Below are positions 1-43,375 of a DNA stretch of 64,000 bases, in pieces. The stretch is from NCBI RefSeq assembly GCF_054482595.1, contig NZ_CM137008.1; one strand, given 5' to 3'. Numbering within the stretch: position 1 is the first letter of the stretch; each line of letters opens with the position of its first letter. The translations under genes and the position numbers were made by a program. The notes beneath the pieces were generated by a model that did no database searches, was not told where the DNA came from, and worked only from the letters and a program-made list of their open reading frames with translations.

Positions 1-812
1 TTTTCGATAAGCTCCACCTGCCGACCGCACCGTGGCAGTTACTTGCCGATCGCAGCGAGTGGCCTGCGGTGTTTGATCGTTTAGGTGAGCTGGCGATTGT
101 TAAGCGTCGCACTGGTGGCTATGACGGACGCGGTCAATGGCGTTTACGCGCCGATGAAACCGAACAGTTACCGGCTGAATGCTACGGCGAATGTATAGTC
201 GAGCAGGGCATAAACTTCTCTGGTGAAGTGTCGCTGGTTGGCGCGCGCGGTTTTGATGGCAGCACCGTGTTTTATCCGCTGACGCATAACCTGCATCAGG
301 ACGGTATTTTGCGCACCAGCGTCGCTTTTCCGCAGGCCAATGCGCAGCAGCAAGCGCAAGCCGAAGAGATGCTGTCGGCGATTATGCAGGAGCTGGGCTA
401 TGTGGGCGTGATGGCGATGGAGTGTTTTGTCACCCCGCAAGGTCTGCTGATCAACGAACTGGCACCGCGTGTGCATAACAGCGGTCACTGGACACAAAAC
501 GGTGCCAGCATCAGCCAGTTTGAGCTACATCTGCGGGCGATTACCGATCTGCCGTTACCGCAACCAGTGGTGAATAATCCGTCGGTGATGATCAATCTGA
601 TTGGTAGCGATGTGAATTATGACTGGCTGAAACTGCCGCTGGTGCATCTGCACTGGTACGACAAAGAAGTCCGTCCGGGCCGTAAAGTGGGGCATCTGAA
701 TTTGACCGACAGCGACACATCGCGTCTGTCCGCGACGCTGGAAGCCTTGATCCCGCTGCTGCCGCCGGAATATGCCAGCGGCGTGATGTGGGCGCAGAGT
801 AAGTTCAGTTAA
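1..812 (+). CDS. purK: N5-carboxyaminoimidazole ribonucleotide synthase, 3' portion (5' end outside window)
   Basis: Open frame from window edge to stop at 810-812; ATP-grasp-like translation; synteny next to ybcF. Confidence 0.85.
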   Translation, partial: FDKLHLPTAPWQLLADRSEWPAVFDRLGELAIVKRRTGGYDGRGQWRLRADETEQLPAECYGECIVEQGINFSGEVSLVGARGFDGSTVFYPLTHNLHQDGILRTSVAFPQANAQQQAQAEEMLSAIMQELGYVGVMAMECFVTPQGLLINELAPRVHNSGHWTQNGASISQFELHLRAITDLPLPQPVVNNPSVMINLIGSDVNYDWLKLPLVHLHWYDKEVRPGRKVGHLNLTDSDTSRLSATLEALIPLLPPEYASGVMWAQSKFS

Positions 813-830
813 CCTGGTGCTCATTTGATT

Positions 831-942
831 GCCGGATGCGGCGTGAACGCCTTATCCGGCCTACACCGATCCGGTACCCATTGTAGGCCTGATAAGACGC
901 GTCAAGCGTCGCATCAGGCATGGTACGCCGATTGCCGGATGC
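831..942. repeat. REP/BIME element (inverted REP pair) between convergent purK and ybcF
   Basis: gccggatgcggcgtgaacgccttatccggcctac followed by inverted gtaggcctgataagacgcg...gcatcaggc; same family as the array at 42270-43010. Confidence 0.7.
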
Positions 943-950
943 TCTCATCA

Positions 951-1844
951 CTACAGCGAAATACAGGTCCCCGCTTCGCCCGCCAGCGTCTCTTCAATTC
1001 GCGATAACGCCCCAATCCACGCGGGTTTACCACGGCTTCTGACATAACCACTCACCGCCGTTACCTTCGGCCCCATCGAACCATCGGCTTTGGCAAATGG
1101 CGCTAACTCATCCGGTGTGGCATGGCGAATGGCACGTTGCTGCGGCGTTCCCCAGTTTTCATATACCGCATCAGCATCGGTGAGGATCACCAGTCCATCG
1201 GCATTAATCTGCTCGGCGAGCAACGCAGCAGCGAGATCTTTATCAATCACCGCTTCACTCCCTGCCCCGTCTTCCGTCACAGGCACACCGCCGCCGCCAC
1301 TGCAAATCACCACATGCCCCTCTTTGAGCAACAACTCGATGGCTTCGCTGTCGAGAATTTTACGCGGTTGCGGAGACGCCACCACCCGGCGTAAATATTT
1401 ACCATCACGTTTCATCTGCCAGCCGTAAGCCGCTTCCAGTGCCTCTTGTTCTTCTGGCTGATAAACCGGACCAATAAATTTCTCTGGCTGCAAAAACGCC
1501 GGATCATCAGGCGAAACCTCAATGCGCGTCAGCACCGTCGTGACAGGCGGCATCTGCGGCTGTGCGCTCAAACTTTGCGCCAGCATATAGCCAATCATCC
1601 CCTGACTTTCCGCCACCAGCACATCCAGCGGATACGGTTCTACCTCTTTCCACGCCAGATTCTGCAATGCCAGCAGCCCCACCTGCGGCCCGTTGCCGTG
1701 AACAATCGCCAGCCGATAAGAACGGGCCAGCCGTGCCAGCGCGGGTACAGCACTGGCGATATTGCGATATTGATTTTCTGCCGTCAGCGCCTCACCGCGC
1801 TGAAGCAAGGCATTGCCCCCAAGAGCTACAACCAGTGTTTTCAT
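951..1844 (-). CDS. ybcF: carbamate kinase-like protein
   Basis: 297-aa ORF, N-terminus [13 protein letters not shown] typical of carbamate kinase; last gene of fdrA-ylbE-ylbF-ybcF cluster. Confidence 0.9.
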
Positions 1845-2656
1845 GGTTTTCCTTGTAATAATTGTTGGCCAAGCCAGAACCCCAGCAGCGTATCTGCCCC
1901 TGACGTATGCCCCAGCGCCAGCAGCGAATCAATCGCAACAGCGGTACGTTTCGGGCAACTCAGAGCATGAGCAAAGTGCAGGAGTGGCGAGGCGAAATAT
2001 CCTTGCGCGGCATAACGTAAATAACTGACGCTCACCGCTGTGGTAACGAGTTGAAGATTGTCGGAACAGGCAAAAAACGGGCGACCGGCGCGCGCATGTA
2101 AAGCACCATAATACCAGGCCGCCAGCAGCATTCCGCTCAACGTGTCATCATGACTTGGCGTTAATCCGGGGCCTTTACCCAGCCAGTGCCGCCAGTCGGT
2201 CTTAACGCCATTGAGCGCGGCCTGAAAACAGTGACGAAACTGGCGTAATTCAGCGGGCAGCGGATCGCTTGCCGCCATCGCCAGTGGCCCGAAAAGTCCG
2301 GTTTCCTCCGCGCGTTGCATCCATGCAGCTGCAAGCGGTTGAGGATGCGAAGGCGGCGTAATACGCAGCAAACAATAACGCTGTGGCTGTGTAACCGTGA
2401 AACGCCCGAGGCGAATCCCTTGAGCCACAACCTGTGGTCGTTCATTGCCGCATAATCCACCGCATAACGCATCGAATTGCGCACGGCGAAGCACCCATCC
2501 TCCGGGGCCGAAACCACTACCCTGACGATGCAGCGTTAACAGTTCGCCGCTTTCCGTCATCAGGTTAATCGCCCGCCGCCACACTCCCGCTAACCGCCAG
2601 GACTGGCGATAATTCGGTGCGCTACTACTGGCAAGCAGAGGATGGATGATCGTCAT
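1841..2656 (-). CDS. ylbF: DUF2877 protein, putative oxamate carbamoyltransferase subunit
   Basis: ORF 1841-2779; start set at internal ATG 2656 (MTIIHPLL) to give the 271-aa length I recall for YlbF. Confidence 0.8.
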
Positions 2657-2666
2657 TGCGCGTTCC

Positions 2667-3926
2667 TCAACCAATCCCCATGCTTTCAGCCAGTGCTTCC
2701 AGCGCCTGTTCAAAACACGCCAGCGGTGCCCGCACGGTGCCTGCGCCAATCTGCCCGATCCCCGCCTCTTTATGGGCAATACCGGTATTGATGAGTGGCG
2801 TAATGCCGGTTTCTACCACGCGACGAATGTCCAGCCCCAGGCACGCGCCCTGAAAATCCCAGCTTGGGATCTGCAACTGCATATTGCGTTCAAGGTAAAT
2901 TTCCGCCATCTCTTCAGATACCGCCCTGGCCGCTTCCATGCCACCCGCACCGACAAAGCGCGTTACGCCAGGCGCTGCGATCATTGCCGCACCTCCGATA
3001 CCAAAGGTTTCGGTAATCGCGCTATCGCCCATATCCGGGTTCGCCTGCTCCTGCGAGAAGCCGGTGAAAAACAGACCTTGCGGAGTGTTTACAGGCGCAG
3101 TAAACCAGCGTTCGCCCAGCCCGCTTACCCGAATCCCGAACATATTACCGTTGCGGGTCATTGCCGTGACGATGCTGCCTGCGCGGATCATCGCGCCAGC
3201 ATCCATCGCCGCCTTGCAGTAAGCCATCGCGAGGTTGAGGAAGAACTGATCGGTCACGCTGAGGAAATCCATCACTTCCGCGATGTGCTGTTTATCATGA
3301 TCGAGGCGAGCAATTTGTGGGGCCAGCGCACGCATTAACAGTGCTGAGGAAGCAATATTGCGTTGATGGAACTCATCGCCCATCGTAATGCCCTGCGCCA
3401 TCATCGCGGTAAGATCGATACCGCGCTCCATGCGCCCCAGCGCCGCGCTTAATACTGGCATTAACACATCGCGCATCCAGCGATGGCGAGTCAGGACATC
3501 TTCGCCGTAAGCGCCAAAACGCATCACTTTGCCGATACCTTCGTTGAGGTTGCAGTACGCCCGGTTGCCGTCGGTCACGTTCTCGACCACCAGCATCGGC
3601 ATACTGGCAGAAGTAATACCGCCCATTGGCCCGACGGCATTCACATGGTGACAAGGAATGAAGTTCACTTCCCCCTGCTCCAGTATTGCCAGCGCCTGCG
3701 CTTCATCTTTCGCCCAACCTTCGAACAGACATGCGCCCACGCACGCCCCTTTCATGGGTCCGGTCATCTCCTGCCAGCGCATTGGCGGCCCGGCGTGAAG
3801 CAGTGTTTTGCCCTGGTTTAGTTCGCTGATAAGTGAAGAAGCCGGTTGCACATCCAGCCAGTGTGGACGAGCGCGACGAATTTGTTCGATAACCGCAGCA
3901 TTGGCTTGCGCCACTGATGTAAACAT
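2667..3926 (-). CDS. ylbE: DUF1116 protein, intact 419 aa
   Basis: Uninterrupted 419-aa ORF between fdrA and ylbF. Confidence 0.85.
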
Positions 3927-3935
3927 GGGAACCCC

Positions 3936-5603
3936 TTATTGCAAACGTTCTAATAAACGAGCCAGTTTTTTATTGCCGCCGGCGACTGGCGACCATTGGT
4001 AATGCACAACCGGTTTGCTGGCGCTTTGTAGCTCCAGCGCAAAACTGCGTAATCCGATGTTAATCACGGCGACGTTTTCCAGTAATGACGGTGTGTGTTG
4101 CTGTGCGGCAGGCGAGAGCGGATGAATTAACGCTGCCGCCAGCAAGGTGGCTTCCGGTAGCGAACTCACGACCGCAATCCCCGCATCTTCCAGCGTGGCG
4201 ATTTGCTGCGAGCGGCATTGCGGGTCACGTTCGGTACCTGTCACCGTGGCAATGGCGTACAGCGGTTGGCTGTCTGAACGCGCGGCACAGGCTTTTTGCC
4301 AGGCGCTCACCAGCGAGGCGGCAGGATCGGCGGTCGCGCCGAAGCCAATCACGACATCAAGTAGCAATACGCGCACTGACAGTTTAGCGCCGAGATCGGC
4401 AATTAACTGGTTGCGTAAGGTTGGGTCGATCATCGGATGGGGACGCCCGACGGTGTAGAAATCATCGCCAAGGTCAATAATCTGGTGACCATCGGCGTCG
4501 AGCATCATGCCGTGATGATGGGCATCATCGGCTTCCACGCCAAGGTGTCCGGCAAGTAATCCCGCCGCTTCGGCAGCCAGCGTACCGCCGGTATACAAAC
4601 CGCAAATAAATCCGCTGCTGACAGGTGCTATTGCGTTACGTCGCGCCGTGACGCGTGAAAGCAGGCAAGCCAGGCGTGCGGCCTCATCCAGCGAGGAGGC
4701 AAACCAGACATTCTCGTCGCGGGCCACCGCCGGGGTATAACCTAAAAACAGCGCCACCGTCGGTTTGCCGGTTGCTTTCATGGCATTAACAATTTTCAGA
4801 CGCACCGCTTCGGCAGGTGGTTTTGAAACAAATGCCAGCACTTCGCTTTTCTCGTCTGCACTGAGCATTTCCAGCGCCGTCAGCGCACTGATGCCGCCCA
4901 CTTCACGGCTGAGGTCGCGGCCGCCAAGGCCAATCGCGTGAGTAATTCCCTCCCCTGCCAGCGCAATCTGCGAGCACAGCTCCTGAATCCCGGTACCGGA
5001 AGCGCCAATGACGCCAATATTGCCTTCCGGCATCACGTTAGCAAAAGCCAGCGGCGTGGCGGCAATCATCGACGTACCGCAGTCCGGCCCCATCACCAGC
5101 AAGCCTTTTTCTCGCGCGCGGGTTTTAAGTTGGATTTCATCTTCCAGCGTGACGTTATCGGAGAACATCATCACGTTGAGGTTGCGATCCAGCGCCTGAT
5201 TCGCCAGCTCCGCCGCATACTCGCCAGCCACTGAAATCAGCGCCAGATTGGCATCGGGTAATTTCTGACAGGCACTGTCCCAGCGACGCACCTGCGTCAA
5301 GGACTGGCTGCTGCCTGCCCCCTGCGCCAGTTGTTTTAGCGCCTCTTCAAGCTGCTGCATAATCGCCTGCGCGATCCCCGCATCCGCCGCTTCGCTACGA
5401 ATTGCCACGCAAATATCGTTCGGCGTGGCGTTATTAAAATCGTCATGCCAGAAACCTGTGGTATCTAATAACGCTTTATTGGCGGGCGTACCCATCATTA
5501 CGGAAACATCATCAACATTTTCTGATTCGCTGAGTTTTCGTGAAATAATCATTAAACTGACCGAATCCTGAAAACACCCTTTTTTAATAAAGGCGTGGAT
5601 CAT
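3936..5603 (-). CDS. fdrA: FdrA, acyl-CoA synthetase (NDP-forming)-like protein
   Basis: 555-aa ORF, N-terminus MIHAFIKKGCFQDSVSLMIISRKL; synteny. Confidence 0.9.
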   Translation of the reverse strand: MIHAFIKKGCFQDSVSLMIISRKLSESENVDDVSVMMGTPANKALLDTTGFWHDDFNNATPNDICVAIRSEAADAGIAQAIMQQLEEALKQLAQGAGSSQSLTQVRRWDSACQKLPDANLALISVAGEYAAELANQALDRNLNVMMFSDNVTLEDEIQLKTRAREKGLLVMGPDCGTSMIAATPLAFANVMPEGNIGVIGASGTGIQELCSQIALAGEGITHAIGLGGRDLSREVGGISALTALEMLSADEKSEVLAFVSKPPAEAVRLKIVNAMKATGKPTVALFLGYTPAVARDENVWFASSLDEAARLACLLSRVTARRNAIAPVSSGFICGLYTGGTLAAEAAGLLAGHLGVEADDAHHHGMMLDADGHQIIDLGDDFYTVGRPHPMIDPTLRNQLIADLGAKLSVRVLLLDVVIGFGATADPAASLVSAWQKACAARSDSQPLYAIATVTGTERDPQCRSQQIATLEDAGIAVVSSLPEATLLAAALIHPLSPAAQQHTPSLLENVAVINIGLRSFALELQSASKPVVHYQWSPVAGGNKKLARLLERLQ

Positions 5604-5919
5604 AACAACTCCTTAAAAATTGCACCCATGGCAATTGCACGAGCAGTGTTAATGTGGCGATTACGGTATCGATGACAACGGGTAAATAAGGTGATGAATA
5701 TCACACAGGGATTATTAACAAAAGAATTCAAATAACCGCCATGCTATTACGTGTTATTTTTTAATAAGCGTGGTTGTTTTAAAAACCAGGTTAAAAGCGA
5801 GCGGATTATCAAATAAATTCTAACTATATTTTTTTGCCTGTCTGGATCACATAATCCAGATATTTTCCCTGTATGTTAATTGCAGTCATGCTTCACACCG
5901 TCGTTAAAAAGGAAGACAG

Positions 5920-6969
5920 ATGAAAATCAGTCGGGAAACACTCCACCAGCTAATTGAGAATAAACTCTGCCAGGCTGGGTTAAAACGTGAGCACGCTGCA
6001 ACCGTGGCTGAAGTATTGGTTTACGCCGATGCCAGAGGGATCCACTCTCATGGCGCGGTGCGCGTGGAATACTACGCGGAACGCATTTCAAAAGGCGGCA
6101 CCAACCGCGAACCGGAGTTTCGTCTTGAGGAAACCGGGCCGTGCTCGGCAATTTTACATGCCGACAATGCCGCCGGACAGGTCGCGGCGAAAATGGGTAT
6201 GGAACATGCCATCAAAACCGCCCAGCAAAATGGCGTTGCGGTGGTCGGTATCAGCCGGATGGGTCACAGCGGCGCAATCTCTTATTTTGTGCAGCAGGCA
6301 GCCCGCGCCGGATTAATTGGCATTTCGATGTGTCAGTCCGATCCAATGGTGGTGCCGTTTGGCGGCGCGGAAATTTACTACGGTACTAACCCACTGGCCT
6401 TTGCCGCGCCGGGAGAAGGCGACGAGATCCTTACCTTTGATATGGCGACTACCGTACAGGCATGGGGAAAAGTGCTCGACGCCCGCTCGCGTAATATGTC
6501 TATCCCGGATACCTGGGCGGTCGATAAAAACGGTGCACCAACAACCGATCCGTTCGCGGTACATGCTCTGCTCCCCGCAGCCGGGCCGAAAGGGTATGGC
6601 CTGATGATGATGATTGACGTCCTCTCAGGCGTCTTACTCGGCTTACCGTTCGGGCGACAGGTTAGTTCGATGTATGACGATTTACACGCCGGGCGTAATT
6701 TGGGGCAATTACATGTAGTTATTAACCCGAACTTTTTCTCCTCCAGCGAATTATTCCGTCAACATCTTAGCCAGACCATGCGCGAATTAAATGCCATTAC
6801 CCCCGCGCCCGGTTTTAATCAGGTTTATTATCCCGGACAGGATCAGGATATTAAACAACGCCAAGCCGCCGTCGAAGGCATCGAAATTGTTGATGATATT
6901 TACCAGTATTTAATTTCCGACGCGCTTTATAACACGTCATACGAAACGAAAAATCCCTTTGCGCAATAA
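5920..6969 (+). CDS. allD: ureidoglycolate dehydrogenase
   Basis: 349-aa ORF, malate/L-lactate dehydrogenase-family translation; first gene of allDCE. Confidence 0.9.
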   Translation: MKISRETLHQLIENKLCQAGLKREHAATVAEVLVYADARGIHSHGAVRVEYYAERISKGGTNREPEFRLEETGPCSAILHADNAAGQVAAKMGMEHAIKTAQQNGVAVVGISRMGHSGAISYFVQQAARAGLIGISMCQSDPMVVPFGGAEIYYGTNPLAFAAPGEGDEILTFDMATTVQAWGKVLDARSRNMSIPDTWAVDKNGAPTTDPFAVHALLPAAGPKGYGLMMMIDVLSGVLLGLPFGRQVSSMYDDLHAGRNLGQLHVVINPNFFSSSELFRQHLSQTMRELNAITPAPGFNQVYYPGQDQDIKQRQAAVEGIEIVDDIYQYLISDALYNTSYETKNPFAQ

Positions 6970-6990
6970 TTATTGAGACAGGACTTTCTT

Positions 6991-8226
6991 ATGATTACAC
7001 ATTTTCGTCAAGCCATAGAAGAAGCGCTGCCCTGGCTTTCCTCTTTTGGCGCTGACCCAGCGGGTGGGATGACCCGTTTACTTTATTCGCCGGAATGGCT
7101 GGAAACCCAGCAGCAATTTAAAAAAAGAATGGCCGCAAGTGGGCTGGAAACACGTTTCGATGAAGTGGGGAATTTATACGGTCGCCTGAGTGGCACCGAA
7201 TATCCACAGGAAGTGATTCTGAGCGGTTCGCATATCGATACCGTGGTTAACGGCGGTAACCTCGACGGGCAATTCGGCGCGCTGGCGGCGTGGCTGGCAA
7301 TTGACTGGCTGAAAACTCAATACGGCGCACCGCTGCGTACGGTTGAAGTGGTGGCGATGGCGGAAGAAGAAGGCAGCCGCTTCCCGTATGTTTTCTGGGG
7401 CAGTAAAAATATCTTTGGGCTGGCGAATCCTGACGACGTGCGGAATATCTGTGATGCCAAAGGAAATAGTTTTGTCGATGCGATGAAGGCTTGCGGATTT
7501 ACTCTGCCGGACGCCCCGCTAACTCCGCGTCAGGATATTAAAGCCTTTGTCGAACTGCATATCGAACAGGGCTGTGTGCTGGAAAGTAATGGGCAATCAA
7601 TTGGCGTGGTGAATGCAATTGTCGGGCAACGTCGCTATACGGTGACGCTGAACGGCGAATCAAACCATGCAGGCACCACGCCGATGGGTTATCGTCGTGA
7701 TACGGTTTACGCTTTCAGTCGCATTTGCCATCAGTCGATCGAAAAAGCGAAAAAGATGGGCGACCCGCTGGTGCTGACCTTTGGTAAGGTGGAGCCGCGC
7801 CCGAATACGGTGAATGTGGTGCCGGGTAAAACCACATTCACCATTGATTGTCGTCATACCGACGCCGCCGTGCTGCGCGATTTCACTCAGCAGTTAGAAA
7901 ACGACATGCGGGCGATTTGCGATGAAATGGACATTGGTATTGATATCAATTTATGGATGGACGAAGAACCCGTGCCGATGAATAAGGACCTGGTCGCCAC
8001 CCTGACAGAATTGTGTGAAAGTGAAAAACTGAATTACCGGGTGATGCACAGTGGTGCCGGGCACGACGCGCAGATTTTCGCGCCTCACGTGCCGACCTGC
8101 ATGATTTTCATTCCCAGCATCAACGGGATCAGCCATAACCCGGCGGAACGCACCAATATTACCGACCTTGCCGAAGGGGTCAAAACGTTGGCACTCATGC
8201 TTTATCAACTTGCCTGGCAGAAATAA
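6991..8226 (+). CDS. allC: allantoate amidohydrolase
   Basis: ORF 6973-8226; start set at ATG 6991 (MITHFRQAIEE, 411 aa) with GAGACAGGA upstream; M20 peptidase-like. Confidence 0.9.
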   Translation: MITHFRQAIEEALPWLSSFGADPAGGMTRLLYSPEWLETQQQFKKRMAASGLETRFDEVGNLYGRLSGTEYPQEVILSGSHIDTVVNGGNLDGQFGALAAWLAIDWLKTQYGAPLRTVEVVAMAEEEGSRFPYVFWGSKNIFGLANPDDVRNICDAKGNSFVDAMKACGFTLPDAPLTPRQDIKAFVELHIEQGCVLESNGQSIGVVNAIVGQRRYTVTLNGESNHAGTTPMGYRRDTVYAFSRICHQSIEKAKKMGDPLVLTFGKVEPRPNTVNVVPGKTTFTIDCRHTDAAVLRDFTQQLENDMRAICDEMDIGIDINLWMDEEPVPMNKDLVATLTELCESEKLNYRVMHSGAGHDAQIFAPHVPTCMIFIPSINGISHNPAERTNITDLAEGVKTLALMLYQLAWQK

Positions 8227-8236
8227 GGAGTCATAA

Positions 8237-9022
8237 ATGGGATATTTAAATAACGTCACCGGTTACCGCGATGATTTACTGGCTAACCGTGCGATTGTGA
8301 AACACGGTAATTTCGCACTGTTAACACCAGACGGTCTGGTAAAAAATATTATTCCGGGCTTTGAAAATTGTGACGCGACAATCCTCTCTACGCCAAAGCT
8401 GGGTGCCTCTTTTGTTGATTATCTGGTCACACTGCATCAAAACGGTGGCAACCAACAGGGCTTCGGTGGCGAAGGCATTGAAACGTTCCTGTATGTGATC
8501 TCTGGAAATATCACTGCCAAAGCCGAAGGCAAAACATTTGCCTTAAGCGAAGGTGGCTATCTTTATTGCCCGCCAGGCTCCTTAATGACGTTTGTTAACG
8601 CCCAGGCCAAAGACAGCCAAATCTTTTTATATAAGCGCCGCTATGTTCCGGTAGAAGGCCATGCACCGTGGCTGGTTTCTGGCAATGCCAGCGAACTGGA
8701 ACGCATTCATTATGAAGGCATGGATGATGTGATCCTGCTGGATTTTCTGCCCAAAGAGTTAGGTTTTGATATGAACATGCATATCCTCTCTTTTGCACCA
8801 GGTGCCAGCCATGGTTATATCGAAACACACGTTCAGGAACACGGTGCCTATATTCTTTCCGGTCAGGGGGTTTATAACCTCGACAATAACTGGATCCCGG
8901 TGAAAAAAGGCGATTACATCTTTATGGGCGCTTATTCTTTACAGGCTGGTTATGGCGTAGGGCGTGGTGAAGCGTTCAGCTATATTTACTCGAAAGATTG
9001 CAACCGCGACGTAGAGATTTAA
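8237..9022 (+). CDS. allE: (S)-ureidoglycine aminohydrolase, cupin
   Basis: 261-aa ORF; synteny after allC. Confidence 0.9.
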   Translation: MGYLNNVTGYRDDLLANRAIVKHGNFALLTPDGLVKNIIPGFENCDATILSTPKLGASFVDYLVTLHQNGGNQQGFGGEGIETFLYVISGNITAKAEGKTFALSEGGYLYCPPGSLMTFVNAQAKDSQIFLYKRRYVPVEGHAPWLVSGNASELERIHYEGMDDVILLDFLPKELGFDMNMHILSFAPGASHGYIETHVQEHGAYILSGQGVYNLDNNWIPVKKGDYIFMGAYSLQAGYGVGRGEAFSYIYSKDCNRDVEI

Positions 9023-22638: not shown

Positions 22639-22648
22639 ACAAATTTTA

Positions 22649-22786
22649 TCAGGTGACGTTCCGTAAAAAGTTGTATGGAGTTCTCGATGCAGTCGGCGCG
22701 ACTATCAGTACCCCCGCTGAACCCTGGACTATCGGGCCGCCGTACTGGGGCATGTCACCCTGGCGTGCCGCTGGTTTTCCGCTAAT
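22649..22786 (-). pseudogene. relic of an rhs 5' end (start codon ATT)
   Basis: Minus-strand translation [26 protein letters not shown] matches rhs N-terminus [26 protein letters not shown] at 27827; diverges after about 30 codons, stop at 22649. Confidence 0.55.
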
Positions 22787-23152
22787 GGTTTATTTCCTCT
22801 TTCTTTCCCGGCAAGAATTTATTTTAATCCGGAAGGATTATTTATTTTCAGATAGGGACTCACATTAAACACGTAACATTTTAATTAATGCATGGCTGAA
22901 TATGTATTACACAATGTCAGATATCGTAAAAGACCAGTGCAATTCTATGTAAACTCTCTGACTGTTCATTTTATTTGTTGCTTCAGGGTCGGAACTCACC
23001 CTCAATAAACAACTGAATACGAGTAGATATTCATCGTCTGAGCTATATGGCTTTACACAATAGCCGACATGTCTTTTCTCAGTCAGGATTTTTACTTTTC
23101 CTCACTACGAAGTTGACGACTTCGATATGGGATAGACTCTTAATTCAAGCAA

Positions 23153-23644
23153 TTACTCTGCACAAGCATCAGGCAATCCAGCTCCAATATTTGTTATAAA
23201 ATAATGCGTAACATTAATTTCACCAACAAAAAAAAGATTTACGCTATCCCCTTGCCCTGGTATTTTACCATATTTACACCACACTTTTTTTGTATCTGGA
23301 TCATTCTTTGATACGATTTTCGCCACTTGTTCCCTGGCCCTCACCGTCAATGTTTTCTTAAACCTCCCCCCATCATCGATTGTTAGGGAAAAATAAGAAA
23401 AAAAATAATCATCTTCTACATTTGTGGATATTGATATATCCACCGCTACGTGCGGAAAAAAATCTGGGAGCCATGTAAAAACTCCATCATTTTCTGGTAT
23501 TGCCATATAGTTTATGTAATGCTTACTTACAAGAGATTCATCTTTGTGTAAATAAAGATAAGTAGTCACGCATAAAAAAACAACGATTATAATAGCAAAA
23601 ATAAATATTACCATCTTTGAGATGTTACTTGAGATAGCCACCAT
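23153..23644 (-). CDS. putative Rhs immunity protein, N-terminal membrane anchor
   Basis: 163-aa AT-rich ORF whose ATG lies 20 nt inside the rhs 3' end; hydrophobic N-terminus ([15 protein letters not shown]). Confidence 0.7.
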
Positions 23645-26600
23645 CTTGTAAAGCCTTTATCGTTTTTTTATGCTCTGGATTAATATAATCAATACATCTA
23701 TTTGAGCAATCTTGTGTTAATGGACATGTCAACCCATGTTCATTTACAGCCAAGTCTTTTTTATTATCTTCAATCATCTCAGAATGGGATAACTTTACTT
23801 TTCTGCCGTACATACCGAACATATTTAACCCGTAATCTCTAATCTCTTTTTCATAACCCAGCCCTTTCGCCGATCGGCTAACACCAGCGTCATTTAATTT
23901 AGACACTCGACAAAATGCCATACAATGGAAAAATTGATCAGTCCCACCTAAATTTAATCTCTTCATATCATCATAAGTATCAGATAATATATCCCATGCT
24001 CTTTGATGGTTTAGTTGTTCTTTTTTTCGCATTAACGCTACATCTGCAGGACTTAACCCTAATGGATCAATACCATTCACCGGATACGCATACAGACTCC
24101 ATCCCCCCGCCAGCCCAATCGGGTCCTGAGTAATATATCGTCCCAGCAACGGATTGTAGTACCGGTTCCGGTTATAATACAGCCCCGACTCCTCATCATA
24201 CTGCTGCCCTGGCAGACGGTACGGCTGATACACATGATGCGGGTTCTCCTCATTAAGCTGGTTGCCCCATTCATCATATTCCGCGCTCCACGCCGTATTG
24301 CCGTCTTCGCTGATAAGCGCCAGCGGCAGTCCCCGGTGGTCGCAGTGATAAAGATGAGCTTTTCGCGCCGGTGTGTATTCCGGCTCCACCTGTCTGGCCA
24401 GTTGCTCCACCGTCAGCCCGCACTGCGCAAGCCACGCCCGGCTTTCACTGCTCACGCGGTCTGCCCGGATTTCTTCCTCCAGTCTGTCCAGCAGCCGCAC
24501 CAGTTCAGCCGGAAATACCACGCCGTGCCCGTCCTCGCTCCCTTCCTGCTGCAGCTTCTCCGCCAGGCTGCGGCGCTGCGCTTTCTCCCGCTCGCCGTTG
24601 TCTGTTTCGATGCGGATGAGCGGCGCGAAGCTCCCCGGCTGATATACCGTCTGGATACGCGTGGTGTCGGTCTGTACCGTCGTCAGCCGGTCGCCGTCCC
24701 ACCCGTACCACGTCACCTCCGGTTTCCGCGACAGCGACATCCATCCCGTCAGGTCACGCTCGCGACGCCACACCCGTTTCCCTGTCCGGCGACCCAGCGG
24801 GTCGTAAAGGTATCGGCTCTCGACCAGCGGCTCCTCATATTGGATACGGATGTAATGGACCAGGCGGTGCAGGCTGTCGTAATGGTAGTGATGGGTGCGC
24901 TCGTCGTCCGTCCGTATCACACCCGCCGGGATGCGGTCCGTCTTCTCCGTCAGTCTGCCGTATTCATCGTAGTGGTAAACATAGTGCGCATCCTTCGCGA
25001 TGCGGTTATCCGGCCACACTGTGAGGGTACTGTCCGGGTGCAGCTCCGGGTCCGGCAGGCGGTTTCCCGCCGGGTCGGTGGCATACGGGATGCGGATGTC
25101 CAGGTCCGGTGCGAGGGTACGCACGCTCTCCAGCCTGCCCGTGGCGCTGTAGCCGTATTCCCGCGTCTGTCGCGGGCCGCTGATGCGCACCAGGTCGCCG
25201 TTGTCATTCCACCCGTAGTCACGGTCATACACCAGGCTGTTCAGGTGCTGGCTCTGTAACTGGCCTGCGGGGGTGTATGTGCTGGTCAGTTTATATGCGG
25301 CATTACTGCCTGCCATGCTGCCAAAGCTGCGCACCGTCTCCCGGTGCATGCGGTCGCGCGTGTACTCCAGCAGCGGCGTGTCGCCAAGCTTCATGCCCGC
25401 CAGATAACCGCTGCCGTAGGTCAGCCACTCCACCGGCGGCAGGCTGTCCGGCGTGACGCGGTTTGCCAGCCCCTGTTCGTTGTAGGCGTGTGTTGTCTCA
25501 TGCTGCCACAGCAGTTCCCCCGTCTCCGGGTTCTCCACCGTCTGCCGTTCGCCGGTCAGGCGGCCCTTATCGTCGTAGCCGTAGTGGACAGCGACACGGT
25601 GGCCTTCGCTCAGGTGGCTGATGTCTGTCAGCCAGCCGTGGTCATCATACTGCCACTGCTCTGCCGGTTCGCCGTTCACCGTGCGGTGAGTGATACGGTC
25701 CGATTCATCGTAGTACCAGAGGGTGACAAGCCCCTCATCTTCACTCTGCGTGAGTTTTCCGGTCAGGTCATAATGATAACGCTGCGTCCGCCCGTCAAAG
25801 CCGCCCTGCTGTACCAACCGGTCCAGCGCATCGTAGCTGAAGTCGCTGTGGCTGCCGTTCTCGTTAGTCAGACTGATGACACGTCCGGCAGCATCGTACT
25901 CCATACTGCGCGTCAGCCCGCCCTGCGTGGTGCTGACCGCCTTTCCCCACGCATCGTACTGTGTCTCGCTCCGGTTGCCGTCCGGGGTGATAACGGCAGT
26001 CAGGTCGCCTGCGGCGTTGTACTCATACTGCGTTTCACGGCCCTGTGCGTCTTTCACCGAGGTTAACCGGCCACGGTTGTCATAGTGGCGGTAAAGGCTG
26101 ATACCTTCCTCGCGGTGAACCGCCGTCATCTGGCCGAAGCGGTCGTATTCATAGCGGGTCTGGTAGCCCGAGCAGTCGGTGAACGCCAGCAACTGACCGT
26201 AGCGGCTCCACGTCATCTGCCGGGTGCTGCCCGTCGCATCTGTTGTCGTGGCCGGTAATTCACTGTGCGCATCATCATAGCGGTAGCGTACTGTCTCCCC
26301 GCTGCGCGATGTCTCCGTTACCAGCCTGTCCAGTTCATCATATGCCCGGCGGCTCTCCAGCCCGTCCGGGGACACCACCGCCGTCAGCTGGTTCCCGTCG
26401 TTATAGTAAAATTTCGTCTCCCGCCCGTCCGGTGTGGTGATGTCCGTGATATCGCCGGACACCACATTCAGACCGTACTCTGTCCGCCGTCCCGCCGCGT
26501 CCGTCTGCGCCGTGAGCCTTCCTGCCGCGTCATACCCGCTGTGCGTGACGCTGCCATCCGCCAGTTCTTTTTTCACCACCCGTTTCAGCCCGCCTTCACC

Positions 26601-27827
26601 TTCTGTATGCAGCACCTCACGCCGGTTCAGGCTGTCGGTGACGGTGATGCGGTCCTGCTCATACTGGTAGCGGTAACTCAGGCCTGCCGGGTTAAGCTGC
26701 TCCACCACCCGCCCGGTATCGTCGTAGCGGTAGCGCATCTCCGGCCTTCCCGCATAACGGTGCCCCACCATCCGGCCCGGGTGCTGCGCGTCATACGTGA
26801 AAGCGCGCACCTGTGTCCCGCTGCGGTCATATACCGCCAGCAGTTCACCGGCTTCCGTATACGTGTACCGCGCCAGTGGCGCTCCGGGCAGGCTCTCCGG
26901 GTATGCCGGGTCGTGCATCAGCCACACCGCCAAAAGGCGGATACCCCTGTCGGGGCCGTATTCGGTACCGGGCAGTGTGTCGGGGAACGCTGAGGCTGAG
27001 AGAGGGCGGGGTGTGTCAGGGGAAGATAAGGAAGCGGTGCGCTGTTTACGGGCCTCTTCCGCACGCTGCGCCTGCGTGGTCAGCACCAGACGGAACTCCC
27101 GCCCGGCACCGTCCGTCACGCCGGTGATTTCCCCGGCCAGGTCACCGGCGGCCTCACGCCGGTACGTCAGCGTCCGCCCGAAGCGGTCTGCCAGCCCGGT
27201 AAGCACCCGGTACGGCGGCAGCGGCGCTGGCAGTACGTCCTCAGCACCCGGCACCAGCTCTGACCACCCCAGTATCCACCACGGCCCCTGTGCGCTGTTG
27301 GTCGCCAGGTAAAGATGCGGGCTTAACCGGATATCCGGCGGCAGCGACGCCCACAGCCGTGCCAGCGTATGGCCGTCCGGCTGCGTTGCCTTACCGCCAC
27401 GCACCAGCCACAGGGACTCGCTGCGGCTGTACACCGCCTCACCCGGCAGCAGCGGCTCAAAGTGAATGCTCCGTCCGCCGTTGTCGTTGAGTACCAGTGC
27501 ATCATCGCGTATCTGTAAGCGGATATCAGAAGGCGCTTTCCAGCCGGGGCCAAAAATCCCCACCGGTGCAGGCGTCTTCGTCCGGTAGCTGCTGTAGGTG
27601 CGGGAGAGAATGAACGGCAGCGGGCCGGGCAGCGCAAGGTCCGTCTCGCCGGGCAGCACCTTCGCCCCCAGCAGCGGATTTACCGGGTTGCCCGAAGTCA
27701 TCCCGCCCGGACACACCGAGCACGCCACGCCAGTTGGCGCGCCAATTCTTACACCTGCCGAACCCTGGACAATGGGACCGCCATACTGAGTCATATCTCC
27801 CTGACGCGCCGCTGGTTTTCCGCTCAT
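23625..27827 (-). CDS. rhsD: Rhs-family polymorphic toxin: PAAR-like N-terminus, YD-repeat core, variable C-terminal toxin domain
   Basis: 1400-aa ORF; many YD repeats; core ends at [10 protein letters not shown] (about 24045-24060) followed by about 143 aa of AT-rich unique sequence; sits between ybbP and selU. Confidence 0.92.
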
Positions 27828-43032: not shown

Positions 43033-43375
43033 TTACGCGACCTTTTTTGCACGCTCTTCACGGCGTGCCAAATATTCAGCCACTGTTTCAATCCGTCCCA
43101 ATTCTTCCTGGGTACGCATGTTGTTTTCAACTTCCCAAAGATCAACTGCCGCCTGGAGGTTTAGCCAAAAATCGACTGTGGTATCAAAAACTTTCGCCAG
43201 ACGGAATGCCATTTCAGTGGTGAGTTTACGATTATTATTGATCAGTGTACTGACGTTATTACGATGAACATGCAGCAACTCTGCTAACTCATTGATTTTC
43301 AAAGCGAGCGGTTCCAGATTATTCATAGAGAAGAATATCTCCGGGTGTCGTCGGTTTTCTTGTTGCCTGTTTCAT
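43033..43375 (-). pseudogene. ybaQ: HigA/Xre-like HTH regulator, apparently frameshifted
   Basis: 18-codon ORF from ATG 43375 (MKQATRKPTTPGDILLYE) stops at TAA 43321-43319, overlapping the 97-aa HTH ORF (43326-43033) in the +1 frame. Confidence 0.6.

Follow-up and report, generated by a model that had tools for sequence, protein, structure and literature searches.

Does an intact ylbE gene set an Escherichia coli sequence apart from the K-12 strain MG1655, where the gene has been described as a frameshifted pseudogene? The question is raised by a 64,000-nucleotide stretch of contig NZ_CM137008.1 (RefSeq assembly GCF_054482595.1), hereafter called the window, in which a first-pass annotation made from the letters alone found ylbE open, took it to be a pseudogene in MG1655, and counted its intactness against an MG1655 origin. 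When the locus was compared with K-12 reference records, with complete E. coli genomes, and with the published biochemistry, the answer was a plainer one: positions 2667..3926 almost certainly hold an ordinary functional allele of ylbE (allG), which stands second in the allFGHK operon.

The ylbE gene and its operon in the window

The ylbE (allG) gene occupies 2667..3926 on the minus strand and runs for 1260 nt from an ATG start, encoding the 419-aa AllG subunit of oxamic transcarbamylase; the open reading frame listing of the window contains no internal stop in this frame, so that the uninterrupted 419-aa reading of the first-pass annotation stands. The protein matched the Pfam family AllG (PF06545, the AllG/YlbE family, formerly named DUF1116) with an E value of 7.9e-98 and a score of 326.7 bits (cut-off, 27); the match covered profile positions 1-215 of 215. 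Alignment with the MG1655 gene (b4572) was ungapped and revealed 12 substitutions, i.e., 1248 of 1260 nt were the same (~99.0%). Eleven of the codon differences are synonymous and one is non-synonymous, and 418 of 419 residues (99.8%) are shared with K-12 AllG/YlbE (YP_009029994.1; UniProt P77129 per PMC11326118), which has the same length, operon position, start, and stop; the flanking genes differ by 1-4%. Because the 1260-nt frame has remained open with 11 synonymous codon differences to 1 non-synonymous, ylbE is, on this codon evidence, a real gene under purifying selection and not a chance open reading frame. The profile match, the full-length collinear orthology with the K-12 gene, and the operon position all place the product in the AllG family, and strain XH990 has a ylbE 100% identical to that of the window (protein WP_000495404.1). 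A 230-aa, ATG-started reading frame lying antisense inside ylbE (2646..3338, plus strand) was taken as a chance frame in a G+C-rich gene.

The single amino acid change, E38Q, lies at 3813..3815 (minus strand), where NC_000913.3, the current MG1655 reference, has GAG (Glu) as codon 38 and the window has CAG (Gln). A silent difference in the old reference, considered below, also maps to codon 38, at its third base (gene nt 114). The only solved structure of the AllG family that we found is PDB 3CLQ, a 421-aa "uncharacterized protein" from a different organism and with a much more divergent sequence than the window AllG; it aligned to AllG residues 2-414 with an E value of 7e-112 and presumably has the same fold. 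Since residue 38 sits in a stretch that aligns poorly, and with a gap, to 3CLQ, the E38Q substitution is probably neutral.

The fdrA-ylbE-ylbF-ybcF cluster had been called complete, and this was borne out: all four genes equal their MG1655 counterparts in length and align with them gap-free, with the gene order and the junctions as in MG1655 (fdrA and ylbE are 9 nt apart, ylbE and ylbF are 10 nt apart, and ylbF and ybcF overlap by 4 nt). Compared to K-12, FdrA, YlbF, and YbcF each differ by 2-10 residues, and synonymous changes are in excess in all four genes. The first gene, fdrA (allF; 3936..5603, minus strand), encodes a 555-aa succinyl-CoA-synthetase-like subunit and differs from MG1655 at 38 of 1668 nt and at 10 aa (97.7% nucleotide identity, vs 99.0% for ylbE), with the changes lying in small clusters (residues 96/101, 361/363/372, 408/409, and 443/445) plus residue 182. 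Downstream of ylbE, ylbF (allH; 1841..2656, minus strand) encodes 271 aa from its annotated ATG, belongs to the Pfam family AllH (PF11392), and carries six substitutions relative to K-12; its start codon and length are those of MG1655 b0520, and the ATG at 2656 is also annotated in XH990. A longer, TTG-started version of this reading frame (312 aa), which would overlap ylbE, was set aside as a mechanical maximal frame, given that the annotated ATG matches both MG1655 and XH990. The last gene, ybcF (allK; 951..1844, minus strand), whose start forms the overlap with the ylbF stop, encodes a 297-aa catabolic carbamate kinase with the Pfam domain AA_kinase and a match of 621 bits to the NCBIfam carbamate kinase model NF006926.

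The rest of the allantoin region is likewise preserved. The genes for the preceding pathway steps, allD (5920..6969), allC (6991..8226), and allE (8237..9022), all on the plus strand, are intact and syntenic with MG1655, as are allS, allA, allR, gcl, hyi, glxR, allW, allB, ybbY, and glxK, the stop codon of the last having been checked directly. No Rfam family matched within window positions 1..8000, and shuffled sequence contained promoter- and terminator-like sites at least as often as did the operon and its surroundings.

Oxamic transcarbamylase in K-12 and its probable counterpart in the window

The gene, its protein sequence, the operon, the enzyme activity, and the regulation are already known and published. 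AllF, AllG, and AllH together constitute oxamic transcarbamylase in K-12 (Kim & Kim 2024, PMC11326118). Deletion of allF, allG, or allH singly abolished anaerobic oxamate formation from allantoin and diverted the flux to oxalate; the comparison of anaerobic allantoin cultures with and without ylbE that the first-pass annotation had proposed is thus in print, with 17.7 mM oxamate in the MG1655 wild type and 0 mM in the allG deletion (PMC11326118). Production by the triple mutant was restored by allF, allG, and allH together, whereas allFG gave only 7% and allGH only 16% (PMC11326118). Expression of allG alone left the allG deletion at 0 mM oxamate, and an allF plus allH combination is not reported in PMC11326118; the strict requirement for AllG may therefore be somewhat uncertain, the published deletion being possibly polar. 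That AllG is a true subunit is supported by co-purification of the untagged protein with His-tagged AllF and AllH (PMC11326118).

The purified AllFGH enzyme interconverts oxamate plus carbamoyl phosphate and oxalurate plus Pi, and its KM for carbamoyl phosphate is 1.3 mM, that for oxamate 36.9 mM (PMC11326118). Physiologically, the reaction runs from oxalurate and Pi to oxamate and carbamoyl phosphate, and oxamate is a dead-end product (PMC11326118). Co-transcription of the four operon genes was demonstrated by RT-PCR, and YbcF, once purified, proved to be a catabolic carbamate kinase (PMC9843812). The earlier reading that these genes, with ybcF, are thought to serve an anaerobic branch of allantoin breakdown is hence established for K-12, more firmly than it was worded, whereas its oxamate-to-carbamoyl-phosphate direction was mistaken, oxamate being a product.

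The type of reaction catalyzed by AllFGH, a carbamoyl transfer with carbamoyl phosphate as donor or product, is shared with the classical transcarbamylases (ATCase PyrB, OTCase ArgI/ArgF, and YgeW), but oxamic transcarbamylase is unrelated to these in sequence and, unlike them, needs three different subunits (PMC11326118). At E <= 0.001, none of the OTCase/ATCase Pfam domains was found in FdrA, YlbE, or YlbF of the window, in agreement with PMC11326118. FdrA carries the Pfam domains CoA_binding (PF02629) and Ligase_CoA (PF00549) and matches the NCBIfam entry "acyl-CoA synthetase FdrA"; it is FdrA, not YlbE, that has the domain make-up of the succinyl-CoA synthetase/ADP-forming acyl-CoA synthetase superfamily. 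Its best PDB match is 3DMY (E = 1.9e-301), and it also matches PDB succinyl-CoA synthetase alpha chains at E values of ~1e-11, in alignments that end short of where the phosphohistidine-loop histidine sits in the alpha chains. Since AllF possesses the CoA_binding and Ligase_CoA domains while no subunit possesses a classical transcarbamylase domain, the chemistry may, by analogy, be akin to the phosphorolysis step of succinyl-CoA-synthetase-type enzymes.

With AllG agreeing in all but one residue with its K-12 counterpart and the other allantoin genes intact, we infer that the AllFGHK proteins of the window act as K-12 orthologues. In this scheme, which the literature has shown for the K-12 orthologues, allFGHK would be transcribed from the promoter between allD and allF and switched on by AllS and ArcA anaerobically in the presence of allantoin; the AllF-AllG-AllH enzyme would phosphorolyse oxalurate to oxamate and carbamoyl phosphate, and AllK (YbcF) would convert carbamoyl phosphate and ADP to ATP, NH3, and CO2.

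The four-G allele and the K-12 reference records

The site at which the K-12 frameshift was recorded is a run of five Gs at ylbE nt 252-256 (window 3671..3675, minus strand; CCCCC on the plus strand). In the window gene this run is complete and nt 114 is a G. Five Gs are also present in MG1655 NC_000913.3, in which ylbE (locus tag b4572, formerly b0519) is annotated as an intact coding sequence of 1260 nt (548357..549616), and an independent MG1655 assembly, NZ_CP032667.1, carries an intact ylbE as well. By contrast, the gene in the W3110 RefSeq record NC_007779.1 is 1259 nt long and is flagged as "frameshifted" (1582..2840 of the piece read); it differs from that of NC_000913.3 only by an A at nt 114 and by four Gs at nt 252-256, and its frame reaches a stop at codon 87. 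When one G was deleted in silico from the five-G run, a stop at codon 87 likewise appeared. The legacy K-12 pseudogene thus occupies the same locus as the window ylbE, but the four Gs, the codon-87 stop, and the A at nt 114 are its own, and the window gene shows neither of its two sequence marks, i.e., the four Gs or the nt-114 A.

This pair of differences is well documented. Several studies that compared strains with the older MG1655 reference reported two changes that "make ORF", one of them silent and located at nt 114, the other an insertion of 1 nt at about nt 253 (PMC4404585, PMC5460176, PMC3045373). In PMC5460176, the comment "Two mutations make ORF" accompanies the entries A->G (position 547,694) and +G (position 547,831), and PMC3045373 states that the ylbE change "restored an intact ancestral gene"; according to the literature, the old reference with the pseudogene allele is NC_000913.2. 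These reports, together with the pseudogene that the W3110 RefSeq record still carries, are what would favor a view of the intact window gene as a strain-specific restoration relative to an MG1655 in which the gene is frameshifted. Such a restoration is very unlikely, and it is refuted for the current MG1655 reference: ylbE is intact in NC_000913.3 and in the independent assembly, the MG1655 wild type used in the published allG experiments makes oxamate (PMC11326118), and the frameshift, as described below, occurs in only 4-5 of 5,417 genomes. The pseudogene status given for ylbE in MG1655 therefore holds for the older reference, and for the W3110 record, but not for NC_000913.3. The current MG1655 gene is intact without being identical to that of the window, from which it differs by the 12 nt and 1 aa given above.

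The state of ylbE was then surveyed across 5,426 complete E. coli genomes. A match was obtained in 5,420, leaving 6 without one, and at least 80% of the gene length was present in 5,417, so that 3 matching genomes fell below this limit. In a sample of 40 records evenly spaced down the ranking of ylbE matches, 39 had a single ungapped match of 1260 nt. Thus, ylbE is a core gene of E. coli. A rare natural disruption was seen in one of these 3, strain AR_0085 (NZ_CP029741.1, 3803131..3803569), in which only ylbE nt 822-1260 are present.

The four-G allele was counted with a 75-nt probe at a threshold of at least 99% identity. Five records reached this threshold, with 100% identity in four of those listed, namely W3110, CIT, LIM, and CAR (about 4-5 of the 5,417 genomes); all other listed matches of the probe, including the independent MG1655 assembly and C600, span 76 nt, which corresponds to five Gs. 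An intact ylbE is hence the norm across essentially all complete E. coli genomes, the current MG1655 reference included. In the CIT record (NZ_CP026028.1; 4,639,673 bp), ylbE is again flagged as "frameshifted" (1287..2545 of the piece read), and its coordinates equal those in W3110; the record length and this coincidence of coordinates suggest that the CIT assembly was built on the old reference.

One might ask if the run of Gs is a slippage-prone on/off switch, with the K-12 four-G allele as a genuine "off" state. The lesion is indeed a 1-nt change in a homopolymer, and several papers refer to it as variation between stock cultures (PMC4404585). Nevertheless, a run of five bases is short for phase variation, the four listed records with four Gs are all K-12 records with ylbE at the W3110 coordinates, and the four-G state always travels with the linked difference at nt 114; we consider a switch of this kind extremely improbable. 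Rarity, confinement to K-12, and linkage to nt 114 speak for one historical sequence and against recurrent slippage. The broader proposal that the four-G/five-G difference is either a recurrent slippage switch or a lab-selected lesion turning the oxamate branch off in some K-12 lines is highly doubtful. Altogether, the first K-12 reference sequences left behind the "ylbE pseudogene" as a legacy allele, which survives in a handful of K-12 records.

The allF promoter region and the identity of the strain

The divergently transcribed allD and allF genes are separated by 316 nt (5604..5919), which hold the promoter of the allF operon. AllS and ArcA were reported to activate the operon by binding at -203/-144 and -142/-83, counted from the allF ATG, and the fragments used in the electrophoretic mobility shift assays of that study (PMC12535856) correspond to window positions 5686..5806 (121 nt). 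The intergenic region is as long as that of MG1655 and differs from it by 10 substitutions, 9 of which fall within -203..-83. These nine cluster near the predicted motif centers at -181, -163, and -134. The window version of 5686..5806 was found at 99% identity or more in 1,899 genomes, including O157:H7; it is the commonest E. coli version, and the regulatory work was done in K-12, whose own version is a minority one. The notion of an unusual regulatory allele at the AllS/ArcA-binding stretch of the window was rejected on these counts. A variant of the recurrent-switch idea, likewise highly doubtful, is that the polymorphic AllS/ArcA-binding stretch makes regulation of the oxamate branch differ between lineages.

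It could still be argued that, in this lineage, an intact reading frame goes with a silent operon or an impaired enzyme, possible causes being E38Q in AllG and the substitutions in FdrA (10), in YlbF (6), and in the AllS/ArcA-binding promoter stretch (9). All of these substitutions do exist in the window, and one FdrA substitution, D296Y, is known to alter the flux, raising that toward oxamate (PMC8550087). However, D296 is unchanged among the 10 FdrA substitutions, which rules out this flux-changing allele here; moreover, the surplus of synonymous changes extends over all four genes, the promoter version is the widespread one just described, AllG residue 38 lies in a stretch poorly conserved relative to 3CLQ, and a 12-kb block containing the operon is identical in many independent isolates. 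An impaired or silent operon is accordingly very improbable, and a functional allFGHK operon remains the preferred reading.

The first 12 kb of the window are 100% identical to XH990 (from human urine, China), to the O157:H16 strain Santai, to THO-010, and to several others, and only 30 records reach at least 99% identity over this length. Compared to MG1655 at 490-556 kb, the window has the same gene order in inverted orientation, and its genes are 94-100% identical, most of them about 96-99%. Judged by this overall divergence and by the 12-kb identity to wild strains, and not by ylbE, the window sequence is not MG1655. The first-pass annotation was right in this conclusion and in two of the differences it had listed, a frameshift in ybaQ and a different Rhs tip, but not in drawing on ylbE for it.

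Compared to MG1655, the ybaQ homologue (43033..43375) shows an indel of 1 nt (343 vs 342 aligned positions), by which the MG1655 frame runs into an early stop at codon 19. The rhsD homologue (22639..27827) aligns with MG1655 over nt 1-3737 of 4281 only, at 94% identity and with 9 gap positions. For ybbC, the only gene downstream of rhsD that was queried, no blastn match was found in the window. The differing C-terminal tip of rhsD and the lack of a ybbC match are in keeping with the exchange of toxin tips and immunity genes that is usual for Rhs loci.

The pseudogene annotation of ylbE was withdrawn in NC_000913.3 and lives on only in the records of W3110 and of a few K-12 derivatives, and analyses that rely on the W3110 RefSeq annotation or on older breseq references will still return a spurious "ylbE pseudogene". 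As nearly all E. coli, the current MG1655 among them, have the gene intact, its intactness is uninformative about strain identity. The correction gained is that an intact ylbE cannot tell a sequence from MG1655; beyond this, the finding matters little, the window carrying what essentially every complete E. coli genome carries.
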